Shown here: piece after piece, positions 27,781 through 43,656 of the stretch
How positions within the stretch are numbered: position 1 is the stretch's first letter
How the letters are laid out: each line of letters opens with the position of its first letter
Virus record (IMG/VR): IMGVR_UViG_3300032883_000034
Source of the DNA: a virus
DNA: 64,000 nucleotides
Strand: one strand, 5' to 3'
Notes under the pieces: generated by a model
Seen by the model: the letters and a program-made list of their open reading frames with translations, nothing else
The model's database searches: none
Told to the model about the DNA's origin: nothing
Made by a program: the position numbers and the translations under genes

Positions 27781-29379
27781 TCAGACCGGATAGAGGGGCT
27801 GTAATTGCGGCCTGTATTCCATCTTCTGGTTCAAATCCATCTGCTGTTCTTCCCGGTTGGGCATGAAGCCACAGTCCCTTAACCACCTTAGCGCCTGAGA
27901 GGTCGAATCAACGAGATCATCGTGGGAACCTTTGGGGAAGACCGCGCACTGGTCGATCACCATGTCTGAGAAGGATCGGTCGGGAGCCGTGACCATTCCA
28001 GACGAGAACATGTGCTGAATCGACTGAACGCGGGCAACTTTATCCCCATATATTTTTGGGTCGATGATATCGATGCCGAACTTGCCGCTCAGCCCGAATA
28101 GCCGGTACATTTCCTGCCCTACCGACATACCGCTTCCCTTGCCTTCAATCAGAAGCCGATTGACCGGGAACCGGGGATGGGAAAGGGGCTTCTGATCGAC
28201 TGTACAAACATCCGTAACTAGTTGAACTAATTGATTAAATTCGAGTCTTTCCTGCCATGCCCAGATAAGCATAACCTTGGGGTTATCGCTATCGTCCCGG
28301 TAAAGCCCCCAAACCGTCAGGGCGCTGGGATCGTTCTCTTCCTTGGCGGTAAAGGCGGGGTCCAGACTTGCCACAATAAAGTCAAAACCGGGATATTTCT
28401 CTTCGTTCCAGATGCCCCAATAGTCCCGCTTTATGATACTTCCGCCCCGTGGTTCAGGGCTTTGTTGATATTGTCCAGCCCATGCGTAGGGGCCTTTATC
28501 TCGCCTTAATTCATCTACAGAGTGGGCTGGGAAGCGTTCGGGCCATGCCAGTTCGCCCTCTTCTGTCCGGGGGTCATCCCAGATGATTTCCCGCCCCTTT
28601 TCGTCCCATCCCAGCGAGGTTGTGCAATGACGGGCCACATCATGCTCCATCGGGATCATCAGGTGGGTATAGCCCATCTTCCGGGTGATGGCGGTGCCGC
28701 TGACATCATCCTCGTGCAACCGCTGCTGGATTACGACGATGGCGCTGGCCTGCTGGGAGTTCAGACGATCCGGAACAACCTCCGTGAACCACATGTTCGT
28801 GTTGTCTCGTATGGCCTCGGACTCCATCTGCATGGTGTTGTTTGCGTCATCGATGATGAACCGGTCGCCTCTTTCACCAACGCCAATACCACCCACCGAT
28901 GTAGCTAGCTTCCATCCGGTATGATCGTTCGCAAACTTGACCTTGGTAAACTGTTCGTTGGATATCTTGAACCTGTCTCCCCAGAAACGCTTGTACCGGT
29001 CGCTCAGAACCACGTTGCGGCAACGCATATTATCGCGTTCCGTCAAGTGGTTGGAGTACGAGGCGCAAACGTACCGGAGATGGGGCATGTTACGCGGCCC
29101 CCATTCCCATGCGGGCCAGAACACATCCGTCATCAGGGACTTGGTAAAGCCGGGAGGGACGTTAATCAAAAGCCTGCGTATCTGGCCATATGTCACGGCC
29201 TCAAGGTGTTCGCAGATCGCTTCAAGCGCCCATCCCTTGATGAAGGGAATGGCCGGTTCGCAAACCGGCCAGACGTATTCGGCAAAGTCCATCAAGCTTC
29301 CTTCGGCCTTGGAGGCGGCCTGAAGCTTGGCAACGCGGTTGAAGGCCCGCGTCATAATCTCGGTCTGACTTAAGTTCAT
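27781..29379 (-). CDS. terL: Terminase large subunit (532 aa)
   Basis: LINVPPGFTKS (Walker A-like), RFIIDDANN (Walker B), QQRLHEDDV, and a C-terminal nuclease-type region with DDLVDS. Confidence 0.9.
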   Translation of the reverse strand: MNLSQTEIMTRAFNRVAKLQAASKAEGSLMDFAEYVWPVCEPAIPFIKGWALEAICEHLEAVTYGQIRRLLINVPPGFTKSLMTDVFWPAWEWGPRNMPHLRYVCASYSNHLTERDNMRCRNVVLSDRYKRFWGDRFKISNEQFTKVKFANDHTGWKLATSVGGIGVGERGDRFIIDDANNTMQMESEAIRDNTNMWFTEVVPDRLNSQQASAIVVIQQRLHEDDVSGTAITRKMGYTHLMIPMEHDVARHCTTSLGWDEKGREIIWDDPRTEEGELAWPERFPAHSVDELRRDKGPYAWAGQYQQSPEPRGGSIIKRDYWGIWNEEKYPGFDFIVASLDPAFTAKEENDPSALTVWGLYRDDSDNPKVMLIWAWQERLEFNQLVQLVTDVCTVDQKPLSHPRFPVNRLLIEGKGSGMSVGQEMYRLFGLSGKFGIDIIDPKIYGDKVARVQSIQHMFSSGMVTAPDRSFSDMVIDQCAVFPKGSHDDLVDSTSQALRWLRDCGFMPNREEQQMDLNQKMEYRPQLQPLYPV

Positions 29380-29417
29380 GGTCTATCAATCTAATTGATC
29401 CATAGGGGAGATACAAT

Positions 29418-29606
29418 ATGACACGCGACGATCTGGAAATCATGGTCGATAAGCTCCGCAAGGAGTTCGTCAAGCGTCAAGGTCTTGGTGGCTATAGCGC
29501 CGATGCCGAAACCATCATGTTTCTTACCAGCACCATGTACGAGATGGGAAGGCATATGCTTGAGGCCATGCCGCGCCCTCGCCCCATCCTCCCGAAGGGG
29601 AAGTAA
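29418..29606 (+). CDS. Hypothetical protein (62 aa), first gene of the sugar island
   Basis: ORF track; GGGGAG 7 nt upstream of the ATG. Confidence 0.4.
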   Translation: MTRDDLEIMVDKLRKEFVKRQGLGGYSADAETIMFLTSTMYEMGRHMLEAMPRPRPILPKGK

Positions 29607-29608
29607 GC

Positions 29609-30217
29609 ATGGGAACCTTTTTCAACACTCCACAAGTCCAAACCAGCACCAGTTATTATCCGAGTATTGGTGCCATCCAAGGGCCAAATGGCGCAGCCAA
29701 AAATTTCATCAATGCCATTCATACTGAGCGACTTAGGCTGGGTAGATTTAATGAGGGAATGTTATGGGGAGGAGTAACGGAAAAAATGGTTGGGTGGCTG
29801 AACGATCCCGATGTGGTCAGGTATTCCGAGCAACGCCACATCAAGCATACCATCGAAACCCAAGCGACTTATTTCAAGCATCTTCAAAGAAATTCGGGGA
29901 TTGATTATTGGTTTATCTATCTGAACGACAAGGAGCGGGACGCCCCATTTGGCCTGATCGGTTCCCTTACTGTCAGCGTTATTGATAAGCCAATCGCCAA
30001 TATCGGCATCATGATCGGGGACAAGACCGCATGGCACCATGGCTATGCCTTGGAAGCCATGAGCGCCATCATCAACGGGCTGGCGGGCGAAGGCTTCAAA
30101 CGGTTCGAAATTGGCACCATGGAAGAGAACCAGCCGATGATCAATCTGGCCATCTCCTGCGGCATGAAGGAAGAGAAGCGCAAGCACGGTTACGTCTACA
30201 TGGCAGCGGAGATTTGA
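29609..30217 (+). CDS. GNAT (RimL/PseH-like) N-acetyltransferase
   Basis: Acetyltransf_3-type pattern (RLRLGRF...NDPDVVRYSEQR...IGIMIGDKTAWHHGYALEAMSAIINGL...GFKRFEIGTMEENQPMINL). Confidence 0.7.
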   Translation: MGTFFNTPQVQTSTSYYPSIGAIQGPNGAAKNFINAIHTERLRLGRFNEGMLWGGVTEKMVGWLNDPDVVRYSEQRHIKHTIETQATYFKHLQRNSGIDYWFIYLNDKERDAPFGLIGSLTVSVIDKPIANIGIMIGDKTAWHHGYALEAMSAIINGLAGEGFKRFEIGTMEENQPMINLAISCGMKEEKRKHGYVYMAAEI

Positions 30218-30219
30218 CG

Positions 30220-30819
30220 ATGGGGAAACAGTCCATCTTCTTTCTGGGCGGGGAAGGTGCCGCTTGGATTGAACGCAATAAAGACAAGATAGACACCCTG
30301 AATGATCCAATCATACAGGCCATTCGTGACTCGGACATCCCGGTAGAAGAGGTTCTGGAGATCGGATGCGCTAATGGATGGCGCTTGAAAATCATCCGTA
30401 ATGAATATGGATGCCCCGCGTATGGTGTCGATCCCGGATATGGAGACATCAATATTGATACCGGAACCGCAGATGATTTGGATTGGAAGGACGGTACATT
30501 CAATGTCGTGATCTATGGCTTCTGTCTCTATCTCTGTGACAGGGAAGACCTGTTCAAGATTGTTTTGGAGGGAGATCGCGTCCTTCAAGAAGGCGGCTAC
30601 CTGATCATCTGGGACTTCCATCAGGACTTTCCCTATTCCCGTCCCTACGAACACAAGGAAGGCTTGCTCTCCTACAAGATGGACTACAGCAAATTATGGC
30701 TGGCCAATCCGGCCTATTACGTTGTGCATCGCCGCATCATCCAGAATACCGACAATCCCGATGACAGGACGGCGGTGACTATCCTGAAAAAGGATACCGC
30801 GCTGGCATGGCAGTCATGA
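30220..30819 (+). CDS. Class I SAM-dependent methyltransferase, pseudaminic-acid-cluster-associated methylase type
   Basis: I used the internal ATG at 30220, 3 nt after the GNAT stop. VLEIGCANGWRL (motif I). The N-terminus FFLGGEGAAWIERN resembles the FW.GEFG..Y..RN start of Pse-associated methylases. Confidence 0.65.
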   Translation: MGKQSIFFLGGEGAAWIERNKDKIDTLNDPIIQAIRDSDIPVEEVLEIGCANGWRLKIIRNEYGCPAYGVDPGYGDINIDTGTADDLDWKDGTFNVVIYGFCLYLCDREDLFKIVLEGDRVLQEGGYLIIWDFHQDFPYSRPYEHKEGLLSYKMDYSKLWLANPAYYVVHRRIIQNTDNPDDRTAVTILKKDTALAWQS

Positions 30820-31421
30820 TCAACCTGATCCTCAGTCCATATCCGCAACGTATCATCCCCATCATCTATGACGATGAACACGAAACAGGCAACGTACTCT
30901 GGGCGGAGGAATTACCGAAAGAGCTGATGTCCATGTTCACCATCGACTGGATCATCAGTTACGGGTTTCGGCACATCATCAAGGAGCCATGGCTGAATGC
31001 CTACAAGGGAAGGATCATCAACATCCACATCAGTCTGTTGCCATGGAACAGGGGCGCTGACCCCAACTTCTGGTCATGGTTCGACGATACTCCCAAGGGC
31101 ATTTCTATCCACGAAGTCGCCAAGGGACTGGATACCGGACCTGTCTATTTTCAGGGAGAAGCCTACTTCAATGCCAACGAATGGAACCATACTCTCGCAA
31201 CCACCTATTACGTCCTGCACCAGCAAGCCATCGAAAGCTTCAAGCAGATATGGCCGCAAATCAAGTCTGGATTGATGACGCCGATTCCACAGACCGGAAA
31301 GGGCAGCTACCACAAGGCCATCGATAAGATAAAATGGTTTGACCAACTGACCTATGGATACAATACGCCGGTCTACGAAGTGATGAAGCTGGGGGAGAAA
31401 AGCAGATGTCAAAAACAATAG
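30807..31421 (+). CDS. Formyltransferase (Formyl_trans_N family)
   Basis: INIHISLLPWNRGADP matches the H-x-S-L-L-P-x-x-R-G formyltransferase motif. Confidence 0.75.
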   Translation: MAVMINLILSPYPQRIIPIIYDDEHETGNVLWAEELPKELMSMFTIDWIISYGFRHIIKEPWLNAYKGRIINIHISLLPWNRGADPNFWSWFDDTPKGISIHEVAKGLDTGPVYFQGEAYFNANEWNHTLATTYYVLHQQAIESFKQIWPQIKSGLMTPIPQTGKGSYHKAIDKIKWFDQLTYGYNTPVYEVMKLGEKSRCQKQ

Positions 31422-32272
31422 GCGTATTGGGGCTAGGTTCTATCGGTATGCGTCACGCCCAAAACTTGAAGGCGCTTGATTGCAATATTCGTGGCTATGA
31501 CCCGGATATGAAGCGCCGCTTGGCGCTTAACGGCGTTCTCTGGGAACGTGATGAGGTTCTGAAATCCGATGCCATCGTTATCGCCAGCCCTACTTCGCGG
31601 CACTACTTCGATATAACCGATGTTCTTGCAGAGGCGAAGCCAATTTTCTGCGAGAAGCCAATAGCCGACAAACTTCCAAACCTTGAGAATACATTCTCAA
31701 GCGTAGCCATGGTTGGTTACAATCTTCGTTTCCATCCCTGCGTCAAGGAAGCCAAGAAGGCAATGGGAGCGATTGGAGAGCCGCTATGGGCAAATTTTTG
31801 TTGCGCCCAGTATAATGACAAGCCTGCGTATTTGCGTGACGGAGTGATACTCAACTGGTCCCATGAAATCGATCTGGCTCTTTATCTCTTGGGACCGGCT
31901 GTTGTCACAGGCTCGCAGACACGTACTCCCGGCTCCCACGATGACATGACCGACATTCTACTGACCCACAGGCAGGGGTGCATGACCGCCATCCATCTGG
32001 ACTACGTTACCAAGCCGGAATTGCGGGGCTTCACCATCTACGGCACCAAGGGAAACATGAATGTAGGATTGACCTCTGGCTCCATGTTCTTCGCGCTCTC
32101 TGGCCAACAGCCGGTGCTGATGGAGACTGACTGGAATGACATCTACAAGGAAGAGATGGAGGCCTTCATCCGGCGCGTCGATGGCGCTGTGACACTGGGT
32201 GCCACCGGTCAGGAAGGTTTGGACACCCTCAAGATATGTTTGGAAGTCCGTAAACAGGCAGGTTTGATATGA
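31406..32272 (+). CDS. Gfo/Idh/MocA-family NAD(P)-dependent oxidoreductase
   Basis: N-terminal IGVLGLGSIGMRHA Rossmann motif, EKP motif (FCEKPIA), and family-typical length. Confidence 0.7.
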   Translation: MSKTIGVLGLGSIGMRHAQNLKALDCNIRGYDPDMKRRLALNGVLWERDEVLKSDAIVIASPTSRHYFDITDVLAEAKPIFCEKPIADKLPNLENTFSSVAMVGYNLRFHPCVKEAKKAMGAIGEPLWANFCCAQYNDKPAYLRDGVILNWSHEIDLALYLLGPAVVTGSQTRTPGSHDDMTDILLTHRQGCMTAIHLDYVTKPELRGFTIYGTKGNMNVGLTSGSMFFALSGQQPVLMETDWNDIYKEEMEAFIRRVDGAVTLGATGQEGLDTLKICLEVRKQAGLI

Positions 32273-34317
32273 AGACAGTATTGATTGGCATCGCTCGCAT
32301 GGGGTCCACAAGACTTCCGGGAAAGGTATTGAAAAAGCTTGGAGGGCATGCCTATCCATACAATTCTTTACATCGCATTATGCACATTGGATACCGCGCT
32401 CCGAAAGTAGATCAGGTAGTTATTGCCACATCCACGCTTCCGCAAGATGATGCCATCCACGATTTTGTCGTTAACGATATTGGGCTGAGCGGCATAGGTG
32501 TCTTTCGTGGAAGCGAAACGGATGTGCTTTCTCGCGTCTATGAGGCAGCGGTAGCCTTTAAGGCAGATGTCATTGTCCGTGTGACATGCGATTGCCCATT
32601 TTTGGACCCACAGGTTATTGGCGAAGTGATCGCTCTGAGGGCCGCCACTGGAGCCGCATACTGTTCCAACAATGATCCGCCGGTATGGCCGGATGGGCTG
32701 GATTGCGAAGCCTTTACCATGGAGGCGCTGACCGCCGCCCATTACGAAGCCAAGCGGCCCACTGACCGCGATACCGTCACGCAGTTCATCGTCCGCAATC
32801 GCAGGCGCTTTCCAGCCGTATCGCTACCCTGTCCGTTGCCGGGGATGAACCGGGAAAGATGGGTACTGGATACCGTCAACGATCTGGCCTTCTGTGAACG
32901 GATAGCCGACGAATTTTGCGATCAGCATATGCCGCCATCCTATCTTCAGATACTCGAATTCCTGAACAAGAACCCGCATCTGAGGGATATCAATTCCCAT
33001 CATCCCCGCAACGAGCGGTTCTTCGAGGCACTGATCAATGAGGAACCTGTCACAAGGCCCCACGATGTCTCCAAAGCCCTTCTCGCGAAGACGCGGGAAA
33101 TCATTCCGCTGGCGGCGCAGACCTTTAGTAAATCGTATCTACAGTATCCGCAGGAAGCGCCGCTGTTCGTCACCCATGGCAACGGTGGAGTGGTCTATGA
33201 CGTTGATGGCAACGATTACGTGGACCTTGTTGGCGGGCTGTTGCCTAATATTCTTGGTTATCGTGACCCTGATGTTGATTTTGCTGTTCGGCAACAGCTA
33301 GGCGCGGGCATCTCATTCTCCGTCGCCACCGAACTGGAAGCCGAATTGGCTCTCAAGCTTCGTCAAATCATCCCCTGCGCCGAAATGTCCCGCTTCGGAA
33401 AGAACGGTACCGATGTCACACAGGCTGCAATCCGGCTGGCAAGGCATTATACCAAGCGGCAGAACATCCTGACTTCCGGTTATCACGGCTGGAGCGACTG
33501 GTCGATTTGTCACGACCCGATGCGGCACAACGGCGTTCTGGACGATGTGCAGAAGCACACCACCATCCTCACCCATGGCGACATCAATGCGGTCAAGGTG
33601 GCGCTTTATACCGGTTCATTTGCCTGTGTCATCGTGGAGCCGGAAACCGATCCGGTCTTCCTCGGTGAGTTGCGCCGGGTTTGCGACCTTACCAAAACCA
33701 TCCTGATCTTCGACGAGATCATCACCGGCTTCCGCTTTGGCCTCGGGGGGGCGCAATCGCTCTACAATGTCATCCCGGACCTTGCCACCTTCGGCAAGTC
33801 GATGGGCAACGGGATGCCCATTTCGGTCCTCTGCGGCAAGACTATGTATATGAAGGAGATGGAAAACATCTGCTTCTCAGGCACCTTCTTTGGAGAAACC
33901 CTGTCCCTTGCGGCCTCCTTGGCGACCATCAAGAAGCTGGAGCAGGAGCCGGTCAACAAGCGGCTGTATCTCTACAACAAGGAGATGCAGAGGACAATTC
34001 AAGAGATTGCCCATAAATACAAGGTGTACAGCATTAACGCTTTTGGTGACCATCTACTACGTCTGAACTTTTCAGATCAGGACATCAAGACGCTGTTCAT
34101 TCAGGAGATGATTGCCAATGGTATCCTCATCATCACATCCTTCAACTTCTGCTGGGCACACGAAGATCATCATATCACCCGTATCCATAGAGCCTTGGAT
34201 CGCACCTTTGCAACTATATCCAAAGCCATTAGAGAGGATAAAGTCAGTGAAAGCATCAAAGGCAAAGTCATCGAAGCCAGCGCCAACGTCAGGCAAAATA
34301 AATATCAGGCGGGATAG
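32269..34317 (+). CDS. Fusion protein: SpsF/PseF-type cytidylyltransferase (N-terminal) + class III (GSA-type) aminotransferase (C-terminal)
   Basis: ARMGSTRLPGKVL (CTP_transf_3). C-terminal half has YDVDGNDYVDLVGG, FGKNGTDVTQAAIRLAR, IFDEIITGFR and TFGKSMGNGMP (PLP lysine). Confidence 0.8.
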   Translation: MKTVLIGIARMGSTRLPGKVLKKLGGHAYPYNSLHRIMHIGYRAPKVDQVVIATSTLPQDDAIHDFVVNDIGLSGIGVFRGSETDVLSRVYEAAVAFKADVIVRVTCDCPFLDPQVIGEVIALRAATGAAYCSNNDPPVWPDGLDCEAFTMEALTAAHYEAKRPTDRDTVTQFIVRNRRRFPAVSLPCPLPGMNRERWVLDTVNDLAFCERIADEFCDQHMPPSYLQILEFLNKNPHLRDINSHHPRNERFFEALINEEPVTRPHDVSKALLAKTREIIPLAAQTFSKSYLQYPQEAPLFVTHGNGGVVYDVDGNDYVDLVGGLLPNILGYRDPDVDFAVRQQLGAGISFSVATELEAELALKLRQIIPCAEMSRFGKNGTDVTQAAIRLARHYTKRQNILTSGYHGWSDWSICHDPMRHNGVLDDVQKHTTILTHGDINAVKVALYTGSFACVIVEPETDPVFLGELRRVCDLTKTILIFDEIITGFRFGLGGAQSLYNVIPDLATFGKSMGNGMPISVLCGKTMYMKEMENICFSGTFFGETLSLAASLATIKKLEQEPVNKRLYLYNKEMQRTIQEIAHKYKVYSINAFGDHLLRLNFSDQDIKTLFIQEMIANGILIITSFNFCWAHEDHHITRIHRALDRTFATISKAIREDKVSESIKGKVIEASANVRQNKYQAG

Positions 34318-34482
34318 CGGACTGATTAACGATATCGAAAATGTCAGAAAATCCAATAACGCGCTCTGGATGGATATTCTGAGGATCGCCTATACGTCGC
34401 GCACCGTCCATACCAAGCGCATCCTCGGAAAGATCAGCAAGAACGACGCTGACATCAACGATATGCTGAAAAGGCTTTCGAA

Positions 34483-34674
34483 ATGAGAGCGATCAAGGAT
34501 GGCATTGAATTGGTTATCTGCATCCGGGGCAGGTTCTTTATGGTCGGCCTATTCCCGTTCAGTTGGACCTTATGGGAATACAAGAGGTTTTCCGTACCGA
34601 CAGAAGGGTACTCCATCCAGATAGGGCCGATTGCCTTCGTTGTCATGGGATGGTTTGAATTGGATGTGAAATGA
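34483..34674 (+). CDS. Hypothetical small protein (63 aa)
   Basis: ATGA-coupled at both ends, to pseI at the 3' end. Confidence 0.4.
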   Translation: MRAIKDGIELVICIRGRFFMVGLFPFSWTLWEYKRFSVPTEGYSIQIGPIAFVVMGWFELDVK

Positions 34675-35690
34675 AGATCGGTGATTACGAGATTGCCAAC
34701 GGCAACAAGCCGTATTTGATTGCGGAGATAAGTTGCAATCATGGTGGCTCGCTGCATCTCGCCTGCGAGTTGATTGTGTTGGCCAAGTGTGCGGGAGCCG
34801 ATGCGGTGAAGTTTCAGGCTTATACTCCTGAGACTATCACTCTCAATATCCAGAAAGCTGATTTTCTGATCAAGAGCGGACCATGGCAGGGATGGTATCT
34901 TCACGACTTATATAAGGATGCCCATACGCCCTTCGAGTGGTTTCCAAGGCTTTACGAGGTCGCGGATGAAGTCGGCATTACCCTATTTGCGTCCGTTTTC
35001 GATCCTACATCGGTGGATATGCTGGAGAGGCTTGGGTGTCCAGCCTACAAGATCGCATCGATGGAGATCGTGGACATCCCGCTGATCCGGTATGCGGCCT
35101 CCACCAACAAGCCGCTGATTATATCCACCGGGATGGCGAGCGAGCATGAAATTCATCAGGCGATGCGGGCGGCGCATTCCTACAATAATTGCGCCATGCT
35201 CGCATGTGTATCGTCCTATCCGGCTACTCTGGGAGAGAGCGGACTGGGGCGACTGAAGGCCTTGCGGGACATCGCCTACATCAGCGGCCTGTCGGATCAT
35301 TCACTGGGGGACGAAGTGACCATCGCGGCTACGGGAATGGGAGCCGCCATTATCGAAAAGCACTTCTGCCAGTCCAGAGATCGCCTGATCCACGATGCCG
35401 AGTTCTCCATGGAACCGGAGGAATTCTTGGCCATGTCGAACCACATCAAGTGGATACATGCTTCTCTGGTCAACAAGGAATACAAGAGCGAGGAAGCCTC
35501 ACGCCAGTTCCGGCGTTCGCTCTATGCGGTGGAGAACATCGGCAAGGGCGAATGGTTCACCGAGAAGAATGTGCGGTCGATCCGGCCCGGATACGGACTG
35601 CCCCCGGTGCAGATCAAGTGGCTGATGAACCATCGTGCCGTGGTGGATATTCCCAGAGGGACCGCGCTGAAGAAGGAGATGGTCAAGTGA
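34671..35690 (+). CDS. pseI: Pseudaminic acid synthase (NeuB family + SAF domain)
   Basis: YLIAEISCNHGGS; FLIKSGPWQGWYLHDLYKDAHTPFEW closely parallels C. jejuni PseI FIIKGGLWDKRKLYELYESAKTPYEW (from memory). C-terminal RRSLYAVENIGKGEWFTEKNVRSIRPG (SAF). Confidence 0.85.
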   Translation: MKIGDYEIANGNKPYLIAEISCNHGGSLHLACELIVLAKCAGADAVKFQAYTPETITLNIQKADFLIKSGPWQGWYLHDLYKDAHTPFEWFPRLYEVADEVGITLFASVFDPTSVDMLERLGCPAYKIASMEIVDIPLIRYAASTNKPLIISTGMASEHEIHQAMRAAHSYNNCAMLACVSSYPATLGESGLGRLKALRDIAYISGLSDHSLGDEVTIAATGMGAAIIEKHFCQSRDRLIHDAEFSMEPEEFLAMSNHIKWIHASLVNKEYKSEEASRQFRRSLYAVENIGKGEWFTEKNVRSIRPGYGLPPVQIKWLMNHRAVVDIPRGTALKKEMVK

Positions 35691-35902
35691 AAAATCTGAT
35701 CGATGGATACTTCAGGCTTCGACAAGACAGCGAAGGCCTTAAGGCTTATGGACACCTGTTCGAGGCAAGGCCTTGGTCCAAGCGGGATGATTGCGCCGTC
35801 CGCAAGTCGGAAGACGGAACGGTTCTCAAGGTTTACCTTGTGGAAGGCGACGTAGAGGCCTGCATCCTCTTCGTGGACGGTTCGTGCAAGACCTACAGCT
35901 AG
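35687..35902 (+). CDS. Possible small protein (71 aa, GTG start)
   Basis: GTGA overlap with the pseI stop. This is the 3' part of track ORF 35189-35902, whose 5' part is out of frame inside pseI. Confidence 0.3.
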   Translation: MKNLIDGYFRLRQDSEGLKAYGHLFEARPWSKRDDCAVRKSEDGTVLKVYLVEGDVEACILFVDGSCKTYS

Positions 35903-35933
35903 TCCCATCGGCCAAGGATAAGGAGCTGGTGAA

Positions 35934-36170
35934 ATGAAGGGGAGCTGGAAGCCTCGCGGCGAATACAAGACGCTCGTTGACCCATCATCACACAGGGTAA
36001 TTCTAACGCGAGGTAAGCATGCGGGACCAATGCTTTGCCTTTATGTTCCGGATGCGGAGCGCGGTGACCATTTCCACGTTTGTCCCATGGCACCTATTTT
36101 CTACGGCAAGAACCAGTTTGGCGTCTGGTACAACGATTTTTTCGATGAATGGATGGAGTTTCCGGAATGA
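35934..36170 (+). CDS. Hypothetical protein (78 aa)
   Basis: ORF track. Confidence 0.4.
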   Translation: MKGSWKPRGEYKTLVDPSSHRVILTRGKHAGPMLCLYVPDAERGDHFHVCPMAPIFYGKNQFGVWYNDFFDEWMEFPE

Positions 36171-36340
36171 TCAAGCGGCTGGCGAACTGGTTGATGAAGA
36201 TACTCGGCATCGAACGCTGCGAACACAAGTGGGTGCAGCGCAGCCAGATCATCACCATGCACGGCACCGAGCGGGTCTTCATCTGCGACAAGTGCCTGCG
36301 GTTCAAGTTCGAACCCTATGGCTGGAGGCCGCTGAAATGA
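36167..36340 (+). CDS. Hypothetical small Cys-containing protein (57 aa)
   Basis: ATGA-coupled at both ends. CEHKW...CDKC. Confidence 0.4.
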   Translation: MIKRLANWLMKILGIERCEHKWVQRSQIITMHGTERVFICDKCLRFKFEPYGWRPLK

Positions 36341-37191
36341 AGAGTGTGCTGATTACGGGTGGCTCGGGCGCTCTTGGCAATGCGCTGGTGGAGCGGCTTC
36401 TTGGGGATAAGGAGCCGTCGCGGATCGTGGTCTACTCCCGTGGCGAGTACCAGCAGTTCCTGATGCGACAACGGATGCCGGTCGAGCAGTTGGACCGGTT
36501 GAGGTTCATGATCGGGGATGTCCGGGACGAGGCACGATTAAGACGCGCCATGGAGGGGGTGGATACCGTGATCCACGCGGCGGCGCTGAAGCGGATCGAA
36601 GTCGGCAACTACAATCCCATCGAAATGGTGAAGACCAATGTGGGAGGGGCCATCAGCGTGATCGAAGCCTCCCACGATGCCGGGGTCAAGAAGGTGGTGG
36701 GGATTTCATCCGACAAGGCATGGCAACCGGTGTCGCCCTACGGCACATCGAAGGCGCTGGCCGAGTCGATCTTTCTGGCCGCGAACAATACAACGGGATG
36801 GAAGGGACCGAAGTTCAGCGTGTGCCGCTATGGGAATGTCTGGGGATCGACAGGATCGGTGGTGCCGATATGGCAAGCGTTGCGGGATGACTGGATTGGT
36901 CTTGTCAGGCTCAAGGTACCGGTAACCCATCCGGACTGCACCCGGTTCTTCATGCGAATGGAGGAAGCAGTTGACCTGATCCTGAAGACGGTCGAGATGG
37001 CTGAATATACCAAGCCGGTTATTCCGATATTGCCAGCCTACCGTCTGGGCGATCTGGCCGAAGCCATGGGTCTGGATATGGATATCCGGGGGCTTCCACC
37101 GTGGGAAAAACTGCATGAAGGGATGGAGCATGGCAATACCTCGGACAAGGCGCGAAGAATGACGGTGGAAGAGTTGAGGGCGGAGTTATGA
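36337..37191 (+). CDS. pseB: UDP-GlcNAc inverting 4,6-dehydratase (PseB/FlmA, Polysacc_synt_2)
   Basis: I used the internal ATG at 36337 (ATGA coupling). LITGGSGALG, RFMIGDVRD, VIHAAALK, PYGTSK, VCRYGNVWGSTGSVVPIW, near-collinear with PseB as remembered. Confidence 0.85.
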   Translation: MKSVLITGGSGALGNALVERLLGDKEPSRIVVYSRGEYQQFLMRQRMPVEQLDRLRFMIGDVRDEARLRRAMEGVDTVIHAAALKRIEVGNYNPIEMVKTNVGGAISVIEASHDAGVKKVVGISSDKAWQPVSPYGTSKALAESIFLAANNTTGWKGPKFSVCRYGNVWGSTGSVVPIWQALRDDWIGLVRLKVPVTHPDCTRFFMRMEEAVDLILKTVEMAEYTKPVIPILPAYRLGDLAEAMGLDMDIRGLPPWEKLHEGMEHGNTSDKARRMTVEELRAEL

Positions 37192-38354
37192 GCGAGAAGC
37201 TGGCTTGCGGGGGTGGTCACATGACCCTCGGGGAGCGACTGCCCCGGTATAATTCGATAGGACCGGACGAGATCGCCATCGTGAGGCGATTGATGGGCCA
37301 CCATCCCCTCTCCGGTTTTCTGGGCGGCATGATGCGGGGCGGGCATTATGTGCAGCGGTTCGAGGAGTTATGGTCACGGATGTTTCACGTGAAACATTCC
37401 ATCCTCGTCAATTCAGCCACATCGGGGTTGCTGGCGGCTTGCGAGGCGGCGGGCGTTCGCCCCGGCACCATTGTTGAAACAACGCCCTTTACCATGTCGG
37501 CCACGGCGGCGGCGGCTAGGTTTCTGGGCGCTGATATCTGGTTCGGGGATATCGAAGAAGATACCTTCTGCCTTGATCGCCTGTCTTGGAACCGGAACAT
37601 CAAGGCCACCATCGTCACCAACCTGTTCGGGCATCCCGCCCGGTTACGAACCATGCGGGAAGAGGCCGACCAGATGGGGCGCATCCTGATCGAAGACAAT
37701 GCACAGGCCCCGATGGCGATGGAGGATGGCAAGTATACCGGTACTATCGGTCATATCGGGGTTTTTAGTCTCAACATCCATAAACACATCCAGTGCGGCG
37801 AGGGGGGCGTGATCTGCACCCAAGACGATGGGCTGGCCAAGGAGATGAGGGGGTTTATCAACCATGGAGAGCTAAGTGGAGGGAAGGTGGGGCTTAATCT
37901 CAGGGCTACCGAGATCACGGCGGCGATTGGGATTTCTCAATTAGCTAGGTCCACGGAGCTTATCGGAAAACGTGTGGATCAGGCTGAGAAGTTAATTGCC
38001 AAAATTGCCAAAATTGCCAAAACCAACTGGCTAACTCCACCCGTAGTGCGCGATGGCTGCACCCATGTCTATTACATGGTGCCGTTCAGGTATGTCAGGT
38101 CCGAGGGTATGCCGCACCGCAACGTAGTGGTGGATGCTCTGGTGGCGGAGGGAGTGCCGCTGGTGAAGGGCTATGTTACCCCGCTGAACCGGATGAAGCA
38201 GTTCGTGAACGAGATACCGCCAGAAGACGTATCCTCCCGGATGCACTATGACGAGATGATCTGCTTTTCCAACTGCGAATGGTCGCCCACGGATACCCAG
38301 ATCGATCTGATCGGGGAAGCCTTCGCCAAGGTATCAAATGCCTTCGGTCTTTGA
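37188..38354 (+). CDS. pseC: DegT/DnrJ/EryC1-family PLP aminotransferase (PseC type)
   Basis: LVNSATSGLLAA, IEDNAQA, FSLNIHKHIQCGEGG (PLP lysine context). ATGA-coupled to pseB. Confidence 0.8.
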   Translation: MSEKLACGGGHMTLGERLPRYNSIGPDEIAIVRRLMGHHPLSGFLGGMMRGGHYVQRFEELWSRMFHVKHSILVNSATSGLLAACEAAGVRPGTIVETTPFTMSATAAAARFLGADIWFGDIEEDTFCLDRLSWNRNIKATIVTNLFGHPARLRTMREEADQMGRILIEDNAQAPMAMEDGKYTGTIGHIGVFSLNIHKHIQCGEGGVICTQDDGLAKEMRGFINHGELSGGKVGLNLRATEITAAIGISQLARSTELIGKRVDQAEKLIAKIAKIAKTNWLTPPVVRDGCTHVYYMVPFRYVRSEGMPHRNVVVDALVAEGVPLVKGYVTPLNRMKQFVNEIPPEDVSSRMHYDEMICFSNCEWSPTDTQIDLIGEAFAKVSNAFGL

Positions 38355-38393
38355 ACCCGAGGTGGACAGGGCGCTGACCAAGGGGGAATTGAA

Positions 38394-38486
38394 ATGACCA
38401 TCATGGGACTATTGGGAATACTGATTTATGTGGGATTGATCTTGCTGATTCTGGCTATATTTGCCCGTGTCATTTTGAGACTTTGA
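38394..38486 (+). CDS. Tiny single-TM peptide (30 aa)
   Basis: Hand-found: AAGGGGGA then ATG; MTIMGLLGILIYVGLILLILAIFARVILRL. Confidence 0.35.
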   Translation: MTIMGLLGILIYVGLILLILAIFARVILRL

Positions 38487-38489
38487 CCA

Positions 38490-38603
38490 ATGGGTATGCT
38501 GGACACGCTGGCTTGGTACGACCGGTGGGTACCCGTCATGTTATGGATTTCTCTGGCTATCTTGGCCATCTTCATCGCCCTGAGAAACAGGAGATCAAAA
38601 TGA
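38490..38603 (+). CDS. Tiny single-TM peptide (37 aa)
   Basis: Hand-found: MGMLDTLAWYDRWVPVMLWISLAILAIFIALRNRRSK. Its stop overlaps the next ATG. Confidence 0.35.
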   Translation: MGMLDTLAWYDRWVPVMLWISLAILAIFIALRNRRSK

Positions 38604-38737
38604 GCGTGATCGGACTTGTCATCCCTATCCTTGGATTATGTTGTTTGCTGCTGGCCATCGACAGTAACCTAGAAGACAGGGATCGGGACAAGCTCAGGGA
38701 ACAAGACCAAGACCACATGCGAGGCTTCCATGATTGA
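38600..38737 (+). CDS. Tiny single-TM peptide (45 aa)
   Basis: MSVIGLVIPILGLCCLLLAIDSNLEDRDRDKLREQDQDHMRGFHD. This is the 3' part of track ORF 38483-38737. Confidence 0.4.
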   Translation: MSVIGLVIPILGLCCLLLAIDSNLEDRDRDKLREQDQDHMRGFHD

Positions 38738-39137
38738 AACCGTCACCGTCCCTCCATCCCCATACCCCACCGGCTTCCTGTGGTGGTTCCGCAACGGAGA
38801 CTCATGGCATGCCCCGGAGATCAACAATGGAGCGCCCTACCTCCCATCTGTTCGGAACCAAGTCTTGCGCGACTGCCTATGGTTTTGTCGTAACCCCATC
38901 GGCAACTTCATGGGCTTCGTCATCGGCTTCGAAGGCCGTGGCTACGTGGTCAAAGGCCCCGCCCCCGTCATGCTCACCACCCTCTACGACGCTATCCCAC
39001 CCCAATACGGCTGGAAATGGTCAATAATCAACGGATGGGCACCCTTCGTATCCTACTCAGGCAGACGTATCCTCTGGTACTTGGGATGGCGTCCCTATAG
39101 CGGCGGATTCGGCTTCAAGTTCAATATCCACTCATAG
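38730..39137 (+). CDS. Hypothetical Trp/Gly-rich protein (135 aa), last gene of the island
   Basis: ORF track. ...YLGWRPYSGGFGFKFNIHS. No family recognised. Confidence 0.5.
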   Translation: MIETVTVPPSPYPTGFLWWFRNGDSWHAPEINNGAPYLPSVRNQVLRDCLWFCRNPIGNFMGFVIGFEGRGYVVKGPAPVMLTTLYDAIPPQYGWKWSIINGWAPFVSYSGRRILWYLGWRPYSGGFGFKFNIHS

Positions 39138-39348
39138 GTATCGCAATTGCGAACCTGAGGTAGTATCTAGATACCGAATGTCCAAAAATTCTATTTGTAA
39201 AATTTTTTGGGCTGACCCCATGGAGTTCATGGACAGAGTATCTAAATACCAGAGACACCCGTATCTTTATTTGGATTTTTATTTTTATATGGCTAAGTAG
39301 TCGCGCTGCATGGAGATAATTATTCACCCTCGCCCGCGCGGGGGGTAG

Positions 39349-39372
39349 GGGGTATGTACCGGACCCCTTTTT
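39349..39372 (+). terminator. Weak intrinsic-terminator-like hairpin after the island
   Basis: GGGGT-ATGTACCGG-ACCCC followed by TTTTT, preceded by the 10-bp palindrome CCCGCGCGGG. Confidence 0.3.
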
Positions 39373-39540
39373 CGTTCCCCTTTCGTTCCCGGAACAAAAC
39401 GTGATCAAACCGGGAACAGGAACATATAGGGTACATAAGGGGAACAAAGCGTGATCGTTCCGCGAACGCAGCGGACATACCGCGAACGCTATATTGCAAT
39501 GCGGGAAAGCTTGAAAACTGGGGAGCTTAAATCGGGGGCG

Positions 39541-39816
39541 CTAATGGCTAGGTGCCTGACCCGATTTCGTCTTGCGCCATTGCCGCATATAGGCCGCCCG
39601 GTCGCGCTTCGGCCCGCTCTTGCCTGCCGTGCCTGCCAATAGGCCCGCACGATACCCGGCGTCATAGCCTTCCCGATACCTATCCGGCTCCTCGGTTACG
39701 TGACCACTAGGCTTGGTTACGTGACCAATATCCTTGGTTACTGTAACCTTGGGTATGCATCTATGAACCTTGCCGATCAGGACTAGGTTTCCTTGGCATA
39801 TCGGGCAGATATCCAT
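39541..39816 (-). CDS. Hypothetical protein with N-terminal CxxC...C motif (91 aa)
   Basis: ORF track. MDICPICQGNLVLIGKVHRC. Confidence 0.45.
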   Translation of the reverse strand: MDICPICQGNLVLIGKVHRCIPKVTVTKDIGHVTKPSGHVTEEPDRYREGYDAGYRAGLLAGTAGKSGPKRDRAAYMRQWRKTKSGQAPSH

Positions 39817-39880
39817 TGATGCGCCCTATGGTATTGGCGGATTAAACGAGGCGAGAGGGCGGTTTCCTGAACAATCTCAA

Positions 39881-39944
39881 CCCAAAGCAATACCATCTCA
39901 GCCCAAAACAAGCCCAAAGCAATAGCAATTCAACCCAAAGCAAT
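39881..39944. repeat. Three direct copies of CCCAAAGCAAT just downstream of terS
   Basis: Exact 11-mers at 39881-39891, 39913-39923 and 39934-39944, plus a degenerate copy GCCCAAAACAA at 39901. Confidence 0.6.
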
Positions 39945-40019
39945 GCCAGGGGCAATAGCGCCAAACGCCAATGATCTACCGTTGATCCTTGCGCTGATAT
40001 GAACACTACAGCCTGAATG

Positions 40020-40550
40020 TTAATTGACTGCACCTGATGAGGGTTCCAATGCCCCGATATCGTCTATCAGGCTTGGTTCACGAGGCGTTTCGTCTTCTAT
40101 CCCAAATGCCTTGGCTAGGGCTATGGCGGCTTCTAACCCCGCTTCTTGTCTCACTTTTTCGAGGATAGCGGGAATATCGGTAAGGTTTTCGAAATCTCCG
40201 GCATTGCCACTTTCGCGCCGGTCGATCAACAACCCGACTAGCTTTGCCTTCTTCTCACTGGCGCTTAACATCGCCTCTGGTTTCGCTTGGCTGGTGGCGA
40301 GAATACGCGCCTCTTCATATTCGGTCAGGATGCTTTCAACCGTAATATCCGCCTTCCGGATCAACGCCATTTGAACCTCTTCTAGTCGCCTCTTTACGTT
40401 AGGCCGGGTTAGTAACTGGCAGGCCGATATCCGGGCGATATCGGGCCGATGCCTTGGGTATATCCTCCGATACGCTTCTGCCGCGTTGCAATCCGTTTTC
40501 ATATACTCCCGGATAAAACGCTCGTGTTTGATATTAACGAGTCTAGGCAT
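40020..40550 (-). CDS. terS: Terminase small subunit (Terminase_2-like)
   Basis: N-terminus NIKHERFIREYMKTDCNAAEAYRRIYP...ARISACQLLTRPNVKRRLEE fits the small-terminase HTH pattern. The ATG at 40550 is preferred over the TTG at 40565. Confidence 0.7.
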   Translation of the reverse strand: MPRLVNIKHERFIREYMKTDCNAAEAYRRIYPRHRPDIARISACQLLTRPNVKRRLEEVQMALIRKADITVESILTEYEEARILATSQAKPEAMLSASEKKAKLVGLLIDRRESGNAGDFENLTDIPAILEKVRQEAGLEAAIALAKAFGIEDETPREPSLIDDIGALEPSSGAVN

Positions 40551-40987: not shown

Positions 40988-42196
40988 ATGACCGCTTATT
41001 CCCCTGCCATGGTTAGAGCACTGAAAGCGCGTGAGGCAATAGCCAAGCGCGACCGATGGTTTGCCCATATCATTTTTGCCGCTCCGATCATTGAGCGAAC
41101 GGATATCAAAACCGCTTGCACAAACGGAACTAAGGTTTTTATCAATCCTGCTTTCATCATGGGGCTGACCGGCGAACAAGTCGAGGGCCTGTTATTTCAT
41201 GAATTTTGCCATATCATCCTGAAACACGTACAGCGGTGCGGATTTCGCGACCCCATGACTTGGAATATTGCCTGCGACGGCGCAAACGCCAACCCCATGA
41301 CGTTGCGGCGCGGGTGGCCCTTGCCAACCGGCGCAATCGATATTCCTGAAATTGCCAACATGACCTGTGAAGCGGCGTATAAATGGCTGATAGACAAGCA
41401 AGAGGCTGACAAGGCCGCAAAGCAACAGGATCAAGATCAGGATCAAGACGCCGATCAAGATCAGAGTAACGAGGCCGACGCTGGCGAAGGCTATCAACAA
41501 GGCTCTGAACCCATGGAAGAGCCAACGGCGGAAGAGCTAAAAGACTTTGAAGCCAAGCTTGACCGCCTGATTGACAGCGCGACCAAAAAGGCAACGGCAG
41601 GCGGTTATATGTCAAAAGACATTGAGCGGCTATTGGATGGTTATGAGGAACCCGCCCCGCTCGACTATAACGATGTACTGGAAGATATGATCCGGAATAA
41701 TCGGGATATCCAAAGTCGGACCTATATGCGGCCTAATCGCCGCTACATTTCGCGGGATATCAATCTGCCCGGTTTCGCCCGTGACCAAATCGCGCGCCTT
41801 GTCTTTTGCATCGATGTTTCATCGTCCATGGATAAGAAAGCCATTGCCGAAATCAAATCGACGGTAGCGCGGTTCATGGATCAAGGCGATATCACAAACG
41901 CCACCATCATTTCTGTTGATACCGATATCCGGGCCATGGGCGACGTTACAACCTCGCAGGAGATTTTAGATTTCGACTTGAACGCACGGCAAGGCGGAAC
42001 GCATTTTGACAGCGCAATGCAAGAGGTTGGCGAATTGACCGATTGCGTTGGGTGCGTGTTCCTGACCGATATGGAAACATCAAGCTTTGGCCCGGAACCG
42101 GACATGCCGGTTGTTTGGATCAATTGGGGCCGCGAGCAACAATCCGGTTCCCCATATTATCCGCCTTATGGCAGGCAAGTGATGTTCAAGCGATAG
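40988..42196 (+). CDS. Metallopeptidase-like (HExxH) + vWA domain protein (DUF2201-like), 402 aa
   Basis: LLFHEFCHIILKH (HExxH). Acidic QDQDQDQD linker. LVFCIDVSSSMD (MIDAS DxSxS). Confidence 0.7.
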   Translation: MTAYSPAMVRALKAREAIAKRDRWFAHIIFAAPIIERTDIKTACTNGTKVFINPAFIMGLTGEQVEGLLFHEFCHIILKHVQRCGFRDPMTWNIACDGANANPMTLRRGWPLPTGAIDIPEIANMTCEAAYKWLIDKQEADKAAKQQDQDQDQDADQDQSNEADAGEGYQQGSEPMEEPTAEELKDFEAKLDRLIDSATKKATAGGYMSKDIERLLDGYEEPAPLDYNDVLEDMIRNNRDIQSRTYMRPNRRYISRDINLPGFARDQIARLVFCIDVSSSMDKKAIAEIKSTVARFMDQGDITNATIISVDTDIRAMGDVTTSQEILDFDLNARQGGTHFDSAMQEVGELTDCVGCVFLTDMETSSFGPEPDMPVVWINWGREQQSGSPYYPPYGRQVMFKR

Positions 42197-43078: not shown

Positions 43079-43303
43079 ATGAACGACGCCACAAAATTAT
43101 TCGCCGCCGAAAACATGATCCACGAACTAATCTCGGCGGCCAAGGGGACCAGCGAAGTCTTAGACGCTGTTGAAAAAGGTATCATTGAGCTTAAGGGACA
43201 TCGTAGCGATATTTCCCGCCAGATCAACCGACTGGAACGCGCCATTGCATCGGCTAAGCCGCTCGTAGACAGACCTGCTCGCGCGAACGGGGGCGAGGCA
43301 TGA
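43079..43303 (+). CDS. Hypothetical coiled-coil protein (74 aa)
   Basis: AAGGAG upstream of the internal ATG at 43079. Confidence 0.45.
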   Translation: MNDATKLFAAENMIHELISAAKGTSEVLDAVEKGIIELKGHRSDISRQINRLERAIASAKPLVDRPARANGGEA

Positions 43304-43656
43304 CACGAAGCCTTCCCGATTGGATAGGCCGGGATAGTGACGAAGCTATCCCGGCTAGGGTCAAAGTCAGAATATTCGAAAAGTACGAAGGCAAATGCGC
43401 GGCTTGCACATTAAAAATAGTCGGCAAATTGTTGCCCGCTTACGATCATAGAATAGCCATCGTTAACGGTGGTAGTAACACAGAGGACAATATTCAACTG
43501 CTTTGCGAACCGTGCCATAAACTCAAGACGCACATCGATACGGCGCAGAAAGCCGTAATGTACCGTAAGCGCAAAAAGGCCATCGGAATAAAGAAGAAGC
43601 CATCCTTTAGAGGATGGAGGAAGATGGACGGAAGCATAGTCTGGAGGAAGCCATGA
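43300..43656 (+). CDS. HNH endonuclease (118 aa)
   Basis: CAACTLKI...AYDHRIAIVNGGSNTEDNIQLLCEPCHKLKTH. Confidence 0.8.
   Translation: MTRSLPDWIGRDSDEAIPARVKVRIFEKYEGKCAACTLKIVGKLLPAYDHRIAIVNGGSNTEDNIQLLCEPCHKLKTHIDTAQKAVMYRKRKKAIGIKKKPSFRGWRKMDGSIVWRKP

Follow-up and report, generated by a model that had tools for sequence, protein, structure and literature searches.

The DNA analysed here, called the window below, is the whole 64,000-nucleotide stretch of a viral record (IMG/VR record IMGVR_UViG_3300032883_000034), and makes up most of the genome of an uncultivated, apparently lytic, podovirus-like phage. Between its large and small terminase genes, both on the - strand, lies a block of tightly packed open reading frames (ORFs) on the + strand (29418-39137), referred to as the island, which carries a set of genes for a nonulosonic acid of the pseudaminic acid (Pse) type. 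A first-pass annotation made from the letters alone had described the block in these terms, and the ORFs and motifs that it quoted were all present in the translations. Profile searches were performed with Pfam, NCBIfam (with the TIGR equivalog cut-offs) and PHROG, and the whole-window domain scans covered ORFs of at least 95 amino acids (aa). The genes of the island and its boundaries were as follows.

24547-26949, - strand, portal (PHROG search)
27781-29379, - strand, terL, large terminase subunit and left boundary of the island (phrog_38, 1e-83)
29418-29606, + strand, 62-aa ORF, first gene of the island, with a GGGGAGA ribosome-binding site
29609-30217, + strand, GNAT N-acetyltransferase, family-level candidate for the PseH step (PF13302, 4.9e-15)
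30220-30819, + strand, S-adenosylmethionine-dependent methyltransferase, candidate for sugar tailoring (PF08241, 1.3e-7; PF13489)
30807-31421, + strand, formyltransferase-like protein, accessory (PF00551, 1.7e-15; PurN/Fmt models, ~1e-11 to 1e-12)
31406-32272, + strand, GFO/IDH/MocA sugar oxidoreductase (PF01408, PF22725, PF02894)
32269-34317, + strand, CT-AT3, a CTP_transf_3 cytidylyltransferase fused to a class-III aminotransferase, 682 aa (PF02348, PF00202)
34671-35690, + strand, PseI, pseudaminic acid synthase (TIGR03586, 1.6e-110; NeuB and SAF domains)
35934-36340, + strand, two small ORFs (78 aa, 63 aa) separating PseI from PseB (one weak match to an uncharacterised PHROG)
36337-37191, + strand, PseB-like UDP-GlcNAc 4,6-dehydratase, short form of 284 aa (TIGR03589, 4.9e-84; PF02719, 2.5e-69)
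37188-38354, + strand, PseC-like DegT-family sugar aminotransferase (TIGR03588, 4.7e-42; PF01041, 5.1e-54)
38395-39137, + strand, small hydrophobic ORFs and a 135-aa ORF (38730-39137), 3' end of the island
40020-40550, - strand, terS, small terminase subunit and right boundary of the island (phrog_51, 1.6e-15)

The matches of the two terminase genes confirmed that the block lies between them on the opposite strand, and the assignment to a Pse-type pathway was also borne out. PseI scored 369 bits against TIGR03586, above the curated cut-off of 340, and 242 bits against the NeuB_NnaB (sialic/legionaminic) model. The PseB and PseC models were the best ones for their respective ORFs. The PseB-like protein, which carries the GxxGxxG and YxxxK motifs, scored 282 bits with TIGR03589 versus 157 with FnlA and 69 with LegB (cut-off 408); at 284 aa against a profile of 324 positions it is short of the C-terminal ~55 positions, and the relatives have the same short form. 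The PseC-like protein scored 144 bits with TIGR03588 (cut-off 423) and 131 bits (4.8e-38) with LegC, both far below the cut-off. In CT-AT3, residues ~1-260 matched PF02348 at 4.1e-18 to 1.3e-17, and the class-III part, which is glutamate-1-semialdehyde-aminomutase-like, matched PF00202 at 1.9e-41. By its domain family the CTP_transf_3 part is a candidate for the CMP-activating PseF step.

The remaining enzymes of the island are probably involved in tailoring the sugar, namely the GFO/IDH/MocA oxidoreductase, the aminotransferase domain of CT-AT3, the methyltransferase and the formyltransferase-like protein. The oxidoreductase weakly matched inositol 2-dehydrogenase and UDP-GlcNAc 3-dehydrogenase models, and would make the keto group used by the class-III aminotransferase. 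The methyltransferase (30220-30819) was retained in relatives, and the GNAT was present in all relatives that bear the island; the formyltransferase-like gene was limited to L008, L010, L011, L013, L021, L151 and L171 among them (contigs and loci other than the window are given L numbers). PseG (UDP-sugar hydrolase, GT-B, Glyco_tran_28_C) was found in none of the scanned ORFs over the 64 kb, and was not recognised in the scanned extra island genes of relatives either. The route therefore comprises five of the six canonical steps, and the earlier description of it as near-complete passes over the missing PseG.

Relatives were collected by a TerL scan of IMG/VR and by an IMG/VR scan with an alignment of the CT-AT3 fusion, giving about 40 independent contigs. 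A scan of IMG/VR with the single PseI protein gave no pattern match, and the CT-AT3 alignment was used for the census instead. The terL product of the window (27781-29379) was 43-75% identical to the TerL of relatives. The island was present in the same place and orientation in about 40 independent IMG/VR contigs from many samples, with TerL identity to the window of 38-75%. Their common gene order is portal and terL on the - strand, then GNAT, methyltransferase, (formyltransferase), GFO, CT-AT3, PseB, PseC and PseI on the other strand, and terS (-) follows beyond the far side of the island where contigs reach that far (L149, L150, L162, L163, L165, L167, L170). The window alone among the members seen has PseI ahead of PseB. 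Relatives with at least 57% TerL identity had island genes upstream wherever that DNA was present, except L017, in which the methyltransferase alone was detected; in L004 and L019 the upstream DNA is too short for the island to be scored. CT-AT3 had 4,983 homologues at E <= 1e-30, and the best 120 of them were all the same fusion on contigs of up to 77 kb from several data sources, indicating that the lineage is abundant.

Where the island is absent, terS and terL are adjacent, as the first-pass annotation had supposed. They are 32 bp apart in MW202675, a complete island-free relative, and a PHROG terS lies directly upstream of terL in 7 of 10 island-free IMG/VR relatives. The GC content of the island (0.47-0.575) is inside the range of the genome, with no GC break, and a repeat search at the island edges gave only short, chance-level pairs. 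The island thus appears without the hallmarks of a mobile island or moron: no convincing flanking repeats, no integrase among the window ORFs scanned and no atypical composition. Island genes are 30-60% identical among relatives. When identity to the window was compared with TerL identity across contigs, GFO (Spearman +0.78) and GNAT (+0.44) followed TerL, whereas PseB (-0.74) and PseC (-0.57) did not, indicating that the island is old and internally mosaic. In relatives, further genes lie between PseB and PseC and encode an ATP-grasp ligase, a PIG-L deacetylase, a PseH-like GNAT, an RmlD-like reductase and a HAD phosphatase. The island is therefore a conserved, clade-defining, internally mosaic and diversifying locus. 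The earlier view of it as cargo acquired by the packaging module holds as an evolutionary statement about an insertion; fresh acquisition does not fit about 40 contigs with TerL at 38-75% identity and no GC anomaly. We consider it very probable that the island functions as a Pse-type nonulosonic-acid module and is kept by selection.

In two further phage lineages with a different terminase, L138 (IMG/VR 3300032893_002216, 399-10711) and L185 (2268-19782), nonulosonic-acid genes again directly adjoin terL, between it and a large portal-sized gene; the L138 cluster also encodes an AdoMet decarboxylase, a DDAH-like protein and an aldo-keto reductase. The surroundings of the terminase seem to be a place where nonulosonic-acid cargo lands repeatedly.

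A pathway to a CMP-sugar needs a transferase, and the island has none. A candidate lies 14 kb away, in the structural module, among the following genes.

13787-14347, - strand, 186-aa all-beta protein, the next gene downstream of the GT42-like one and conserved alongside it
14429-15376, - strand, GT42-like (Cst-II-like) candidate nonulosonic-acid transferase, 315 aa, within the structural module, called by predicted fold and context
15379-16174, - strand, two small Ser/Thr-rich, low-charge proteins directly upstream of the GT42-like gene (129 aa, 26% Ser+Thr; 134 aa, 33% Ser+Thr)
17317-18907, - strand, Ser/Thr-rich proteins of 121 aa (27% Ser+Thr) and 346 aa (29% Ser+Thr), encoded between the genes for the major capsid protein and the GT42-like protein

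By eye, the 315-aa protein has a GxxPS...GxD Rossmann-like pattern resembling sialyltransferases. It has 944 close homologues. An AlphaFold2 model from a 38-sequence alignment had a mean predicted local distance difference test score (pLDDT) of 73, with core blocks in 85-245 mostly at 81-97. When the model was compared with the PDB by Foldseek, the top 10 matches were without exception sialyltransferases of glycosyltransferase family 42 (GT42; Cst-II, Cst-I and the Pasteurella multocida enzyme), with E values from 7.6e-5 to 4e-3, probability 1.0 and template modelling scores of 0.39-0.49 on the target. More distant matches included nucleotide-binding Rossmann-type proteins (QueC, SteA, thiamin pyrophosphokinase), and those in BFVD were uncharacterised proteins throughout. 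The protein is accordingly predicted, from the model, to have a Cst-II-type single Rossmann-like (GT-A variant) fold. In a profile comparison by hhalign, for which the Cst-II sequence was checked against the PDB, residues 186-241 of the window protein, with SSFAWMMAFAMKQGATEIALYGIDM within, gave a weak local match to Cst-II 131-177 (E 2.5e-4, probability 43%). The aligned part covers the nucleotide-binding TSG...GID segment and includes the Cst-II stretch TSGVYMCAVAIALGYKEIYLSGIDFY, and SSFAWMMAFAMKQGATEIALYGIDM falls on Cst-II 131-156. The catalytic His188 of Cst-II was left unaligned; the invariant His130 of the GT42-like family lies in another motif, WFE[LI]H. PF06002 gave no match to the window protein and matched 1 of 45 family members at E 0.09, and PF01973 (Maf) matched neither the window protein nor the 45 family members at E <= 0.1.

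Genomic context links this gene to the island, and it is stronger evidence than the predicted fold. Among 12 long IMG/VR contigs with the GT42-like gene, the island was confirmed in 10 and the other two were undecided. Homologues were also found within or beside nonulosonic-acid or PseB-type genes in L138/L172, L185, L188 (viral), and in L206, L211 and L212, which are contigs of metagenome-assembled genomes (MAGs). In addition, P0258 is a natural fusion of a CTP_transf_3 domain with a GT42-like domain, encoded directly downstream of a PseB-like gene, and its cytidylyltransferase is 38% identical to that of the window. MW202675 has no GT42-like homologue, although the capsid protein (64% identical), the portal, terL and the adaptors are common to it and the window; transferase absence was tested in this one complete island-free genome, as the 10-kb flanks of the other relatives end before they pass the capsid gene. 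The GT42-like protein is quite probably the transferase of the island, and would use a CMP-nonulosonate donor.

The family to which it belongs is large. An exhaustive HMMER search gave 4,156 cluster representatives, none of them annotated. A scan of genome contigs with the GT42-like alignment gave seven MAG contigs, and a scan with another alignment (A1) gave none. Several matches lie on contigs binned into MAGs of the candidate phyla radiation (CPR), Dehalococcoidia or Babeliales, which are probably mis-binned phage contigs. One MAG contig (L209, JBAZEO010000042.1, 9772-12233) has two paralogous GT42-like genes ~1.3 kb apart. The only GenBank phage homologue is in Microcystis phage Mvi-Yong1342-1 (L205, PP496355.1, 7902-8705), where the gene lies directly upstream of terS and is annotated as a 'type 11 methyltransferase', probably wrongly.

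The neighbours of the GT42-like gene are low in charge, and their Ser+Thr content is 22-33%, whereas the median for the genome is 12%. Essentially nothing in this Ser/Thr-rich block could be annotated with PHROG or Pfam, and the entire block 6878-19458 is without any counterpart in MW202675. Across 24 loci the position of the gene is conserved: major capsid protein, then the 346-aa or the 121-aa/134-aa protein, the 129-aa protein, the GT42-like gene, the 186-aa protein and, after other genes, the 671-aa protein, p104 and an adaptor. The 129-aa protein was syntenic with the GT42-like gene in 21 of the 24 loci, and the set of 121-aa and 346-aa proteins differs among relatives. The 186-aa protein accompanies the transferase also in the unrelated contig L138/L172; its AlphaFold2 model is a beta-sandwich, with non-significant jelly-roll/C1q-like Foldseek matches only. 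From position and composition, the 129-aa, 134-aa, 121-aa and 346-aa proteins are candidate acceptors, the last two maybe surface proteins, and the 186-aa protein may be an acceptor or a partner.

Two further proteins are encoded in this block. The 671-aa protein (7194-9209, -) consists of ~14 degenerate repeats, each ending in W/F-x-x-A/P-x-SEPVR, has no family match and is kept at 26-39% identity in relatives, just before the adaptor genes. The 382-aa protein (9213-10361, -) has a Gly/Ser/Ala-rich low-complexity C-terminal half with GGxGG runs, and a weak match to an uncharacterised PHROG.

No integrase was found among the ORFs scanned and the genome therefore looks lytic, and SU10-type adaptor domains in the window suggest a podovirus-like particle. 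A DnaA C-terminal helix-turn-helix protein, a GcrA-like cell-cycle regulator and a pentapeptide-repeat protein lie together at 49641-51550, in the early/replication region. The nearest cultured relatives by capsid and TerL are phages of Pelagibacter, Roseobacter, Caulobacter, Paracoccus and Rhizobium. From the GcrA and DnaA_C domains and these mostly alphaproteobacterial-phage relatives, the host is probably an alphaproteobacterium. The best capsid match in GenBank (64%) is from an uncultured genome and the next is at 38%; GenBank holds no cultured member of the clade.

Based on these observations, we propose that the island operon would convert UDP-GlcNAc to a CMP-activated 5,7-diamino-3,5,7,9-tetradeoxy-nonulosonic acid of the Pse type. 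A PseB-like 4,6-dehydratase would act first, followed by the PseC-like aminotransferase and N-acylation by the GNAT; UDP would then be released by a host enzyme or an unrecognised PseG, PseI would condense the product with phosphoenolpyruvate, and the CTP_transf_3 domain would activate it with CMP. Tailoring of the sugar would probably fall to the GFO oxidoreductase, the class-III aminotransferase domain, the methyltransferase and the formyltransferase-like protein, which might, for instance, introduce a further amino group for N-formylation or methylation. The GT42-like enzyme (14429-15376) would take the CMP-sugar as donor and transfer it, in the cytoplasm and late in infection, onto the adjoining Ser/Thr-rich virion surface proteins, giving a particle with an acidic, bacterial-type glycan coat. 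Gene identities, their conservation, the modelled fold of the transferase and its genomic link to the pathway were observed, and from them we infer the exact sugar, the source of the PseG step, the donor used by the GT42-like protein and the acceptor.

We regard this whole scheme, in which the phage makes a CMP-Pse-type sugar and a GT42-like enzyme moves it onto virion proteins, as the best explanation, with a probability of about 0.5. The first-pass annotation knew of no transferase and had left the acceptor open between the virion, host surface structures and immune or defence evasion. With a candidate enzyme in the structural module the virion option is now favoured, although not proven. 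Synteny in the structural module, the Ser/Thr-rich neighbours, the lytic look of the genome and the lack of flippase and polymerase genes (neither these nor a ligase gene were detected among the window ORFs scanned) together point to O-glycosylation, in the cytoplasm, of proteins on the virion surface. As for the acceptor, we would put the case for virion proteins just short of an even bet. A wider proposition is tentative and somewhat weaker still: that a globally spread uncultivated clade makes its own CMP-Pse-like sugar and O-glycosylates its own capsid or fibre through a new transferase family, with shuffled PseB/PseC and tailoring genes diversifying the coat. If true, this would be a virion-surface analogue of the variation in bacterial O-antigen or flagellin glycans.

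Several observations weigh against the proposed scheme. For the pathway, PseB and PseC are under their equivalog cut-offs, and PseC is barely separable from LegC. The GNAT (29609-30217), called PseH-like earlier, belongs to the GNAT family by PF13302 but did not match TIGR03585 (PseH) at E <= 0.01; an extra GNAT in some relatives matched TIGR03585 weakly (3.4e-7). Likewise, the cytidylyltransferase predicted from 32269 is one at the level of the CTP_transf_3 family, and its domain alone gave weak KdsB-type matches in NCBIfam and none to PseF (TIGR03584). The pathway is also incomplete unless the host or an unrecognised enzyme performs the PseG step. For the transferase, the 315-aa protein had no match in Pfam, NCBIfam, PHROG or PDB sequences, and the GT42-like call leans on a medium-confidence model (pLDDT 73, template modelling score 0.35-0.49) and a weak profile match (43%). 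The comparison on transferase absence is with a single complete island-free genome, and the Microcystis prophage record (L205), which has the homologue, is without nonulosonic-acid pathway genes. For the acceptor, characterised GT42 enzymes sialylate lipooligosaccharide, not proteins, and Ser/Thr-rich proteins are common in phage fibres whether glycosylated or not.

The main rival is that the sugar modifies a host structure, such as lipopolysaccharide (LPS) or lipooligosaccharide, capsule, flagellin or pili, masking receptors against superinfection or against loss of progeny on debris. All the structurally characterised matches to the GT42-like fold are lipooligosaccharide sialyltransferases, which fits this rival, and nonulosonic-acid genes of prophages provide a precedent (PMC12053666, PMC6586298). 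The Microcystis prophage homologue, having no pathway of its own, is also compatible with use of a host sugar pool. The transferase gene, however, is embedded in the structural operon in synteny with virion-type proteins and not among early or moron-like genes; a lytic-looking genome would leave little time for exporting a new surface glycan, and the window ORFs scanned showed no flippase, polymerase or ligase for such a route. Modification of host LPS, capsule or flagellin is therefore unlikely in our judgement, though it is the alternative that fares best.

Less probable is an auxiliary metabolic module that boosts or rewires the host supply of Pse or legionaminic acid (Leg), for example for flagellin or an S-layer, with the GT42-like protein being unrelated, for instance a nucleotide-binding assembly factor. 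The missing PseG, which implies reliance on host enzymes, and the moderate fold match with its distant QueC, SteA and thiamin pyrophosphokinase hits would agree with it. Yet if the protein were unrelated, it would be difficult to account for the natural fusion of cytidylyltransferase and GT42-like domains and for the way the gene repeatedly lies among nonulosonic-acid genes. The tailoring genes, moreover, differ among relatives (ATP-grasp, PIG-L deacetylase, RmlD-like reductase, extra PseH-like GNAT), which suggests a phage-specific diversifying glycan and not the support of a fixed host product. We consider such a module improbable.

To our knowledge, no CMP-nonulosonate modification of DNA has been described. 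Phages do glycosylate modified bases (PMC13326640) and the island adjoins the packaging genes, but attachment of the sugar to phage DNA as a hypermodification evading restriction was rejected as very improbable, since the window ORFs of at least 95 aa showed no domain of the base-hydroxymethylase, thymidylate-synthase-like or DNA-glycosyltransferase kind and the GT42-like gene sits among capsid and tail genes. Finally, although the block is on the strand opposite to both neighbours and its enzymes are from typical bacterial families, host DNA misassembled onto the phage, a chimera at the junctions that the first-pass annotation had considered, or a very recent horizontal pickup can be dismissed almost completely, given identical junctions and gene order in the ~40 independently assembled contigs (TerL 38-75%), no GC break, no flanking repeats and island genes diverged to 30-60% identity.

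Under the proposed virion glycosylation, the closest known chemistry is the bacterial CMP-Pse pathway of Helicobacter and Campylobacter. The island resembles it in having a PseI equivalog, a PseB-type dehydratase, a DegT aminotransferase, a GNAT and a CTP_transf_3 protein in one operon. It differs in being phage-encoded, in that PseG was not found and its GNAT and cytidylyltransferase are not PseH/PseF equivalogs, and in the fusion of the cytidylyltransferase to a class-III aminotransferase and the added GFO, methyltransferase and formyltransferase-like genes. The product of the island is probably a modified Pse derivative.

In structure, the 315-aa protein comes closest to the GT42 sialyltransferases (Campylobacter jejuni Cst-I/Cst-II; P. 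multocida 9c08), with the SS/TSG...EI.L.GID segment in common, and by analogy a CMP-ulosonic-acid donor is expected. In contrast to them, the 315-aa protein is phage-borne in a structural module, is only ~15% identical, has no PF06002 match, leaves His188 unaligned and has the invariant WFE[LI]H; a disordered N-terminus of 80 aa and a helical hairpin at the C-terminus are further differences. In Maf, a flagellin transferase, the central domain resembles Cst-II. Maf and FlmG, the pseudaminyl- and legionaminyl-transferases of flagellin, do the same job as proposed here, cytoplasmic O-glycosylation of Ser/Thr-rich structural proteins from CMP-Pse or CMP-Leg, as described for FlmG and flagellin (PMC7591256). 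The 315-aa protein, unlike these enzymes, has no PF01973 domain and no TPR or GT-B domain of the FlmG type, and its proposed substrates are virion proteins, not flagellins.

Self-encoded glycosylation of viral particles has precedents. Giant viruses (Mimiviridae, chlorovirus) encode the glycosylation of their own capsid fibrils with viosamine, bacillosamine and rhamnosamine. Like the phage proposed here, they encode both the synthesis of a rare bacterial-type sugar and transferases for their own particle; they are eukaryotic viruses with other sugars, whereas the present case is a ~65-75-kb tailed phage and a nonulosonic acid. The mycobacteriophages studied by Freeman et al. in 2023 reportedly rely on ordinary glycosyltransferase families and host nucleotide sugars. 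The passages that cite this work in PMC12582341 and PMC11256854 describe mycobacteriophage capsid and tail proteins as decorated by glycosyltransferases that the phages themselves encode. By comparison, our phage encodes the activated-sugar pathway too, the sugar is a nonulosonic acid, and glycosylation is deduced from genes. Prophage genes epaA/epaB of Acinetobacter baumannii turn capsule Pse into 8-epi-Pse (PMC12053666), and phage-encoded O-acetyltransferases modify capsule nonulosonic acids (PMC6586298). These A. baumannii genes are likewise phage-borne and act on Pse-type sugars, but they are one or two tailoring genes of temperate phages acting on a host-made capsule sugar, not a pathway plus a transferase in a lytic-type phage.

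The enzyme families themselves are known, and the proposed chemistry is the bacterial CMP-Pse pathway combined with Cst-II- or Maf-like transfer. The differences are the carrier, a clade of 65-75-kb tailed phages; the architecture, with an island splitting terS and terL, a cytidylyltransferase-aminotransferase fusion, no PseG found and variable tailoring genes; and the transferase, from a large unannotated family distantly like GT42. The pathway was rightly called rare in phages: NeuB/PseI matched by tblastn in 3 of 50,697 GenBank phage records, none of which is a relative, and a megablast of the terL-island-terS region against GenBank phages gave no match. Full-text literature searches turned up no publication on a Pse or nonulosonic-acid pathway carried by a phage.

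Nonulosonic acids (sialic, pseudaminic and legionaminic) are regarded as sugars of animal and bacterial cell surfaces. If the scheme is true, self-encoded glycosylation, seen in giant viruses and, with glycosyltransferases only, in mycobacteriophages, would extend to phages of ordinary size and to nonulosonic acids. Through an effect on adsorption, stability, grazing or immune recognition, a glycan coat on the virion could alter phage ecology. The GT42-like family may represent a large, so far unrecognised group of transferases of the Pse/Leg type; only few enzymes of this kind are known, and they are sought for glycoengineering and for studies of pathogen glycans. The question of the acceptor has become testable, since a specific candidate enzyme (14429-15376) and a few adjoining candidate acceptors can now be named.

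The ends of the island showed several minor features.

29385-29399, perfect palindrome ATCAATCTAATTGAT, read from the sequence
39140-40019, convergent junction with an AT-rich non-coding stretch, a small ORF and tandem repeats
39541-39816, - strand, 91-aa ORF in the convergent junction
39881-39944, two copies of a 32-nt tandem repeat, CCCAAAGCAATA..., just upstream of terS

The palindrome ATCAATCTAATTGAT takes up much of the 38-bp divergent gap between the terL start codon and the first island ORF, and is possibly an operator. The gap leaves terL without space for an ordinary promoter; terL could be transcribed either by antisense transcription through the island or from a promoter within it. 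At the convergent end of the island, the AT-rich non-coding stretch (39140-39540) and the 32-nt repeats upstream of terS might be regulatory or pac-related. A scan of 27-41.2 kb for sigma-70 promoters and terminators was uninformative, as the counts did not exceed those expected from shuffled sequence.

The ORFs at 38395-39137 and the 62-aa ORF (29418-29606) had no match in Pfam, NCBIfam or PHROG. A homologue of the 135-aa protein sits elsewhere in the genome of the relative L098, and its gene is therefore not island-specific. The 62-aa ORF was found by tblastn at the same position, at 31-46% identity, in L002, L008, L011-L013, L149, L158, L160, L161, L168, L170, L171 and L174.

Beyond the island, a DUF2201 metallopeptidase/VWA protein, labelled 'HNH endonuclease' by PHROGs, adjoins terS (40988-42196, +). 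An inorganic pyrophosphatase-like InPase domain (PF18823) is encoded at 63169-63969 (-), in a protein whose N-terminal part is homologous to three places in MW202675. Five homing-endonuclease-like genes of the HNH/NUMOD/I-HmuI type were also seen (6326-6868, -; 16276-16854, +; 18910-19458, -; 43300-43656, +; 53313-53858, +), three of them inside the structural module, where one lies on the opposite strand between virion genes.

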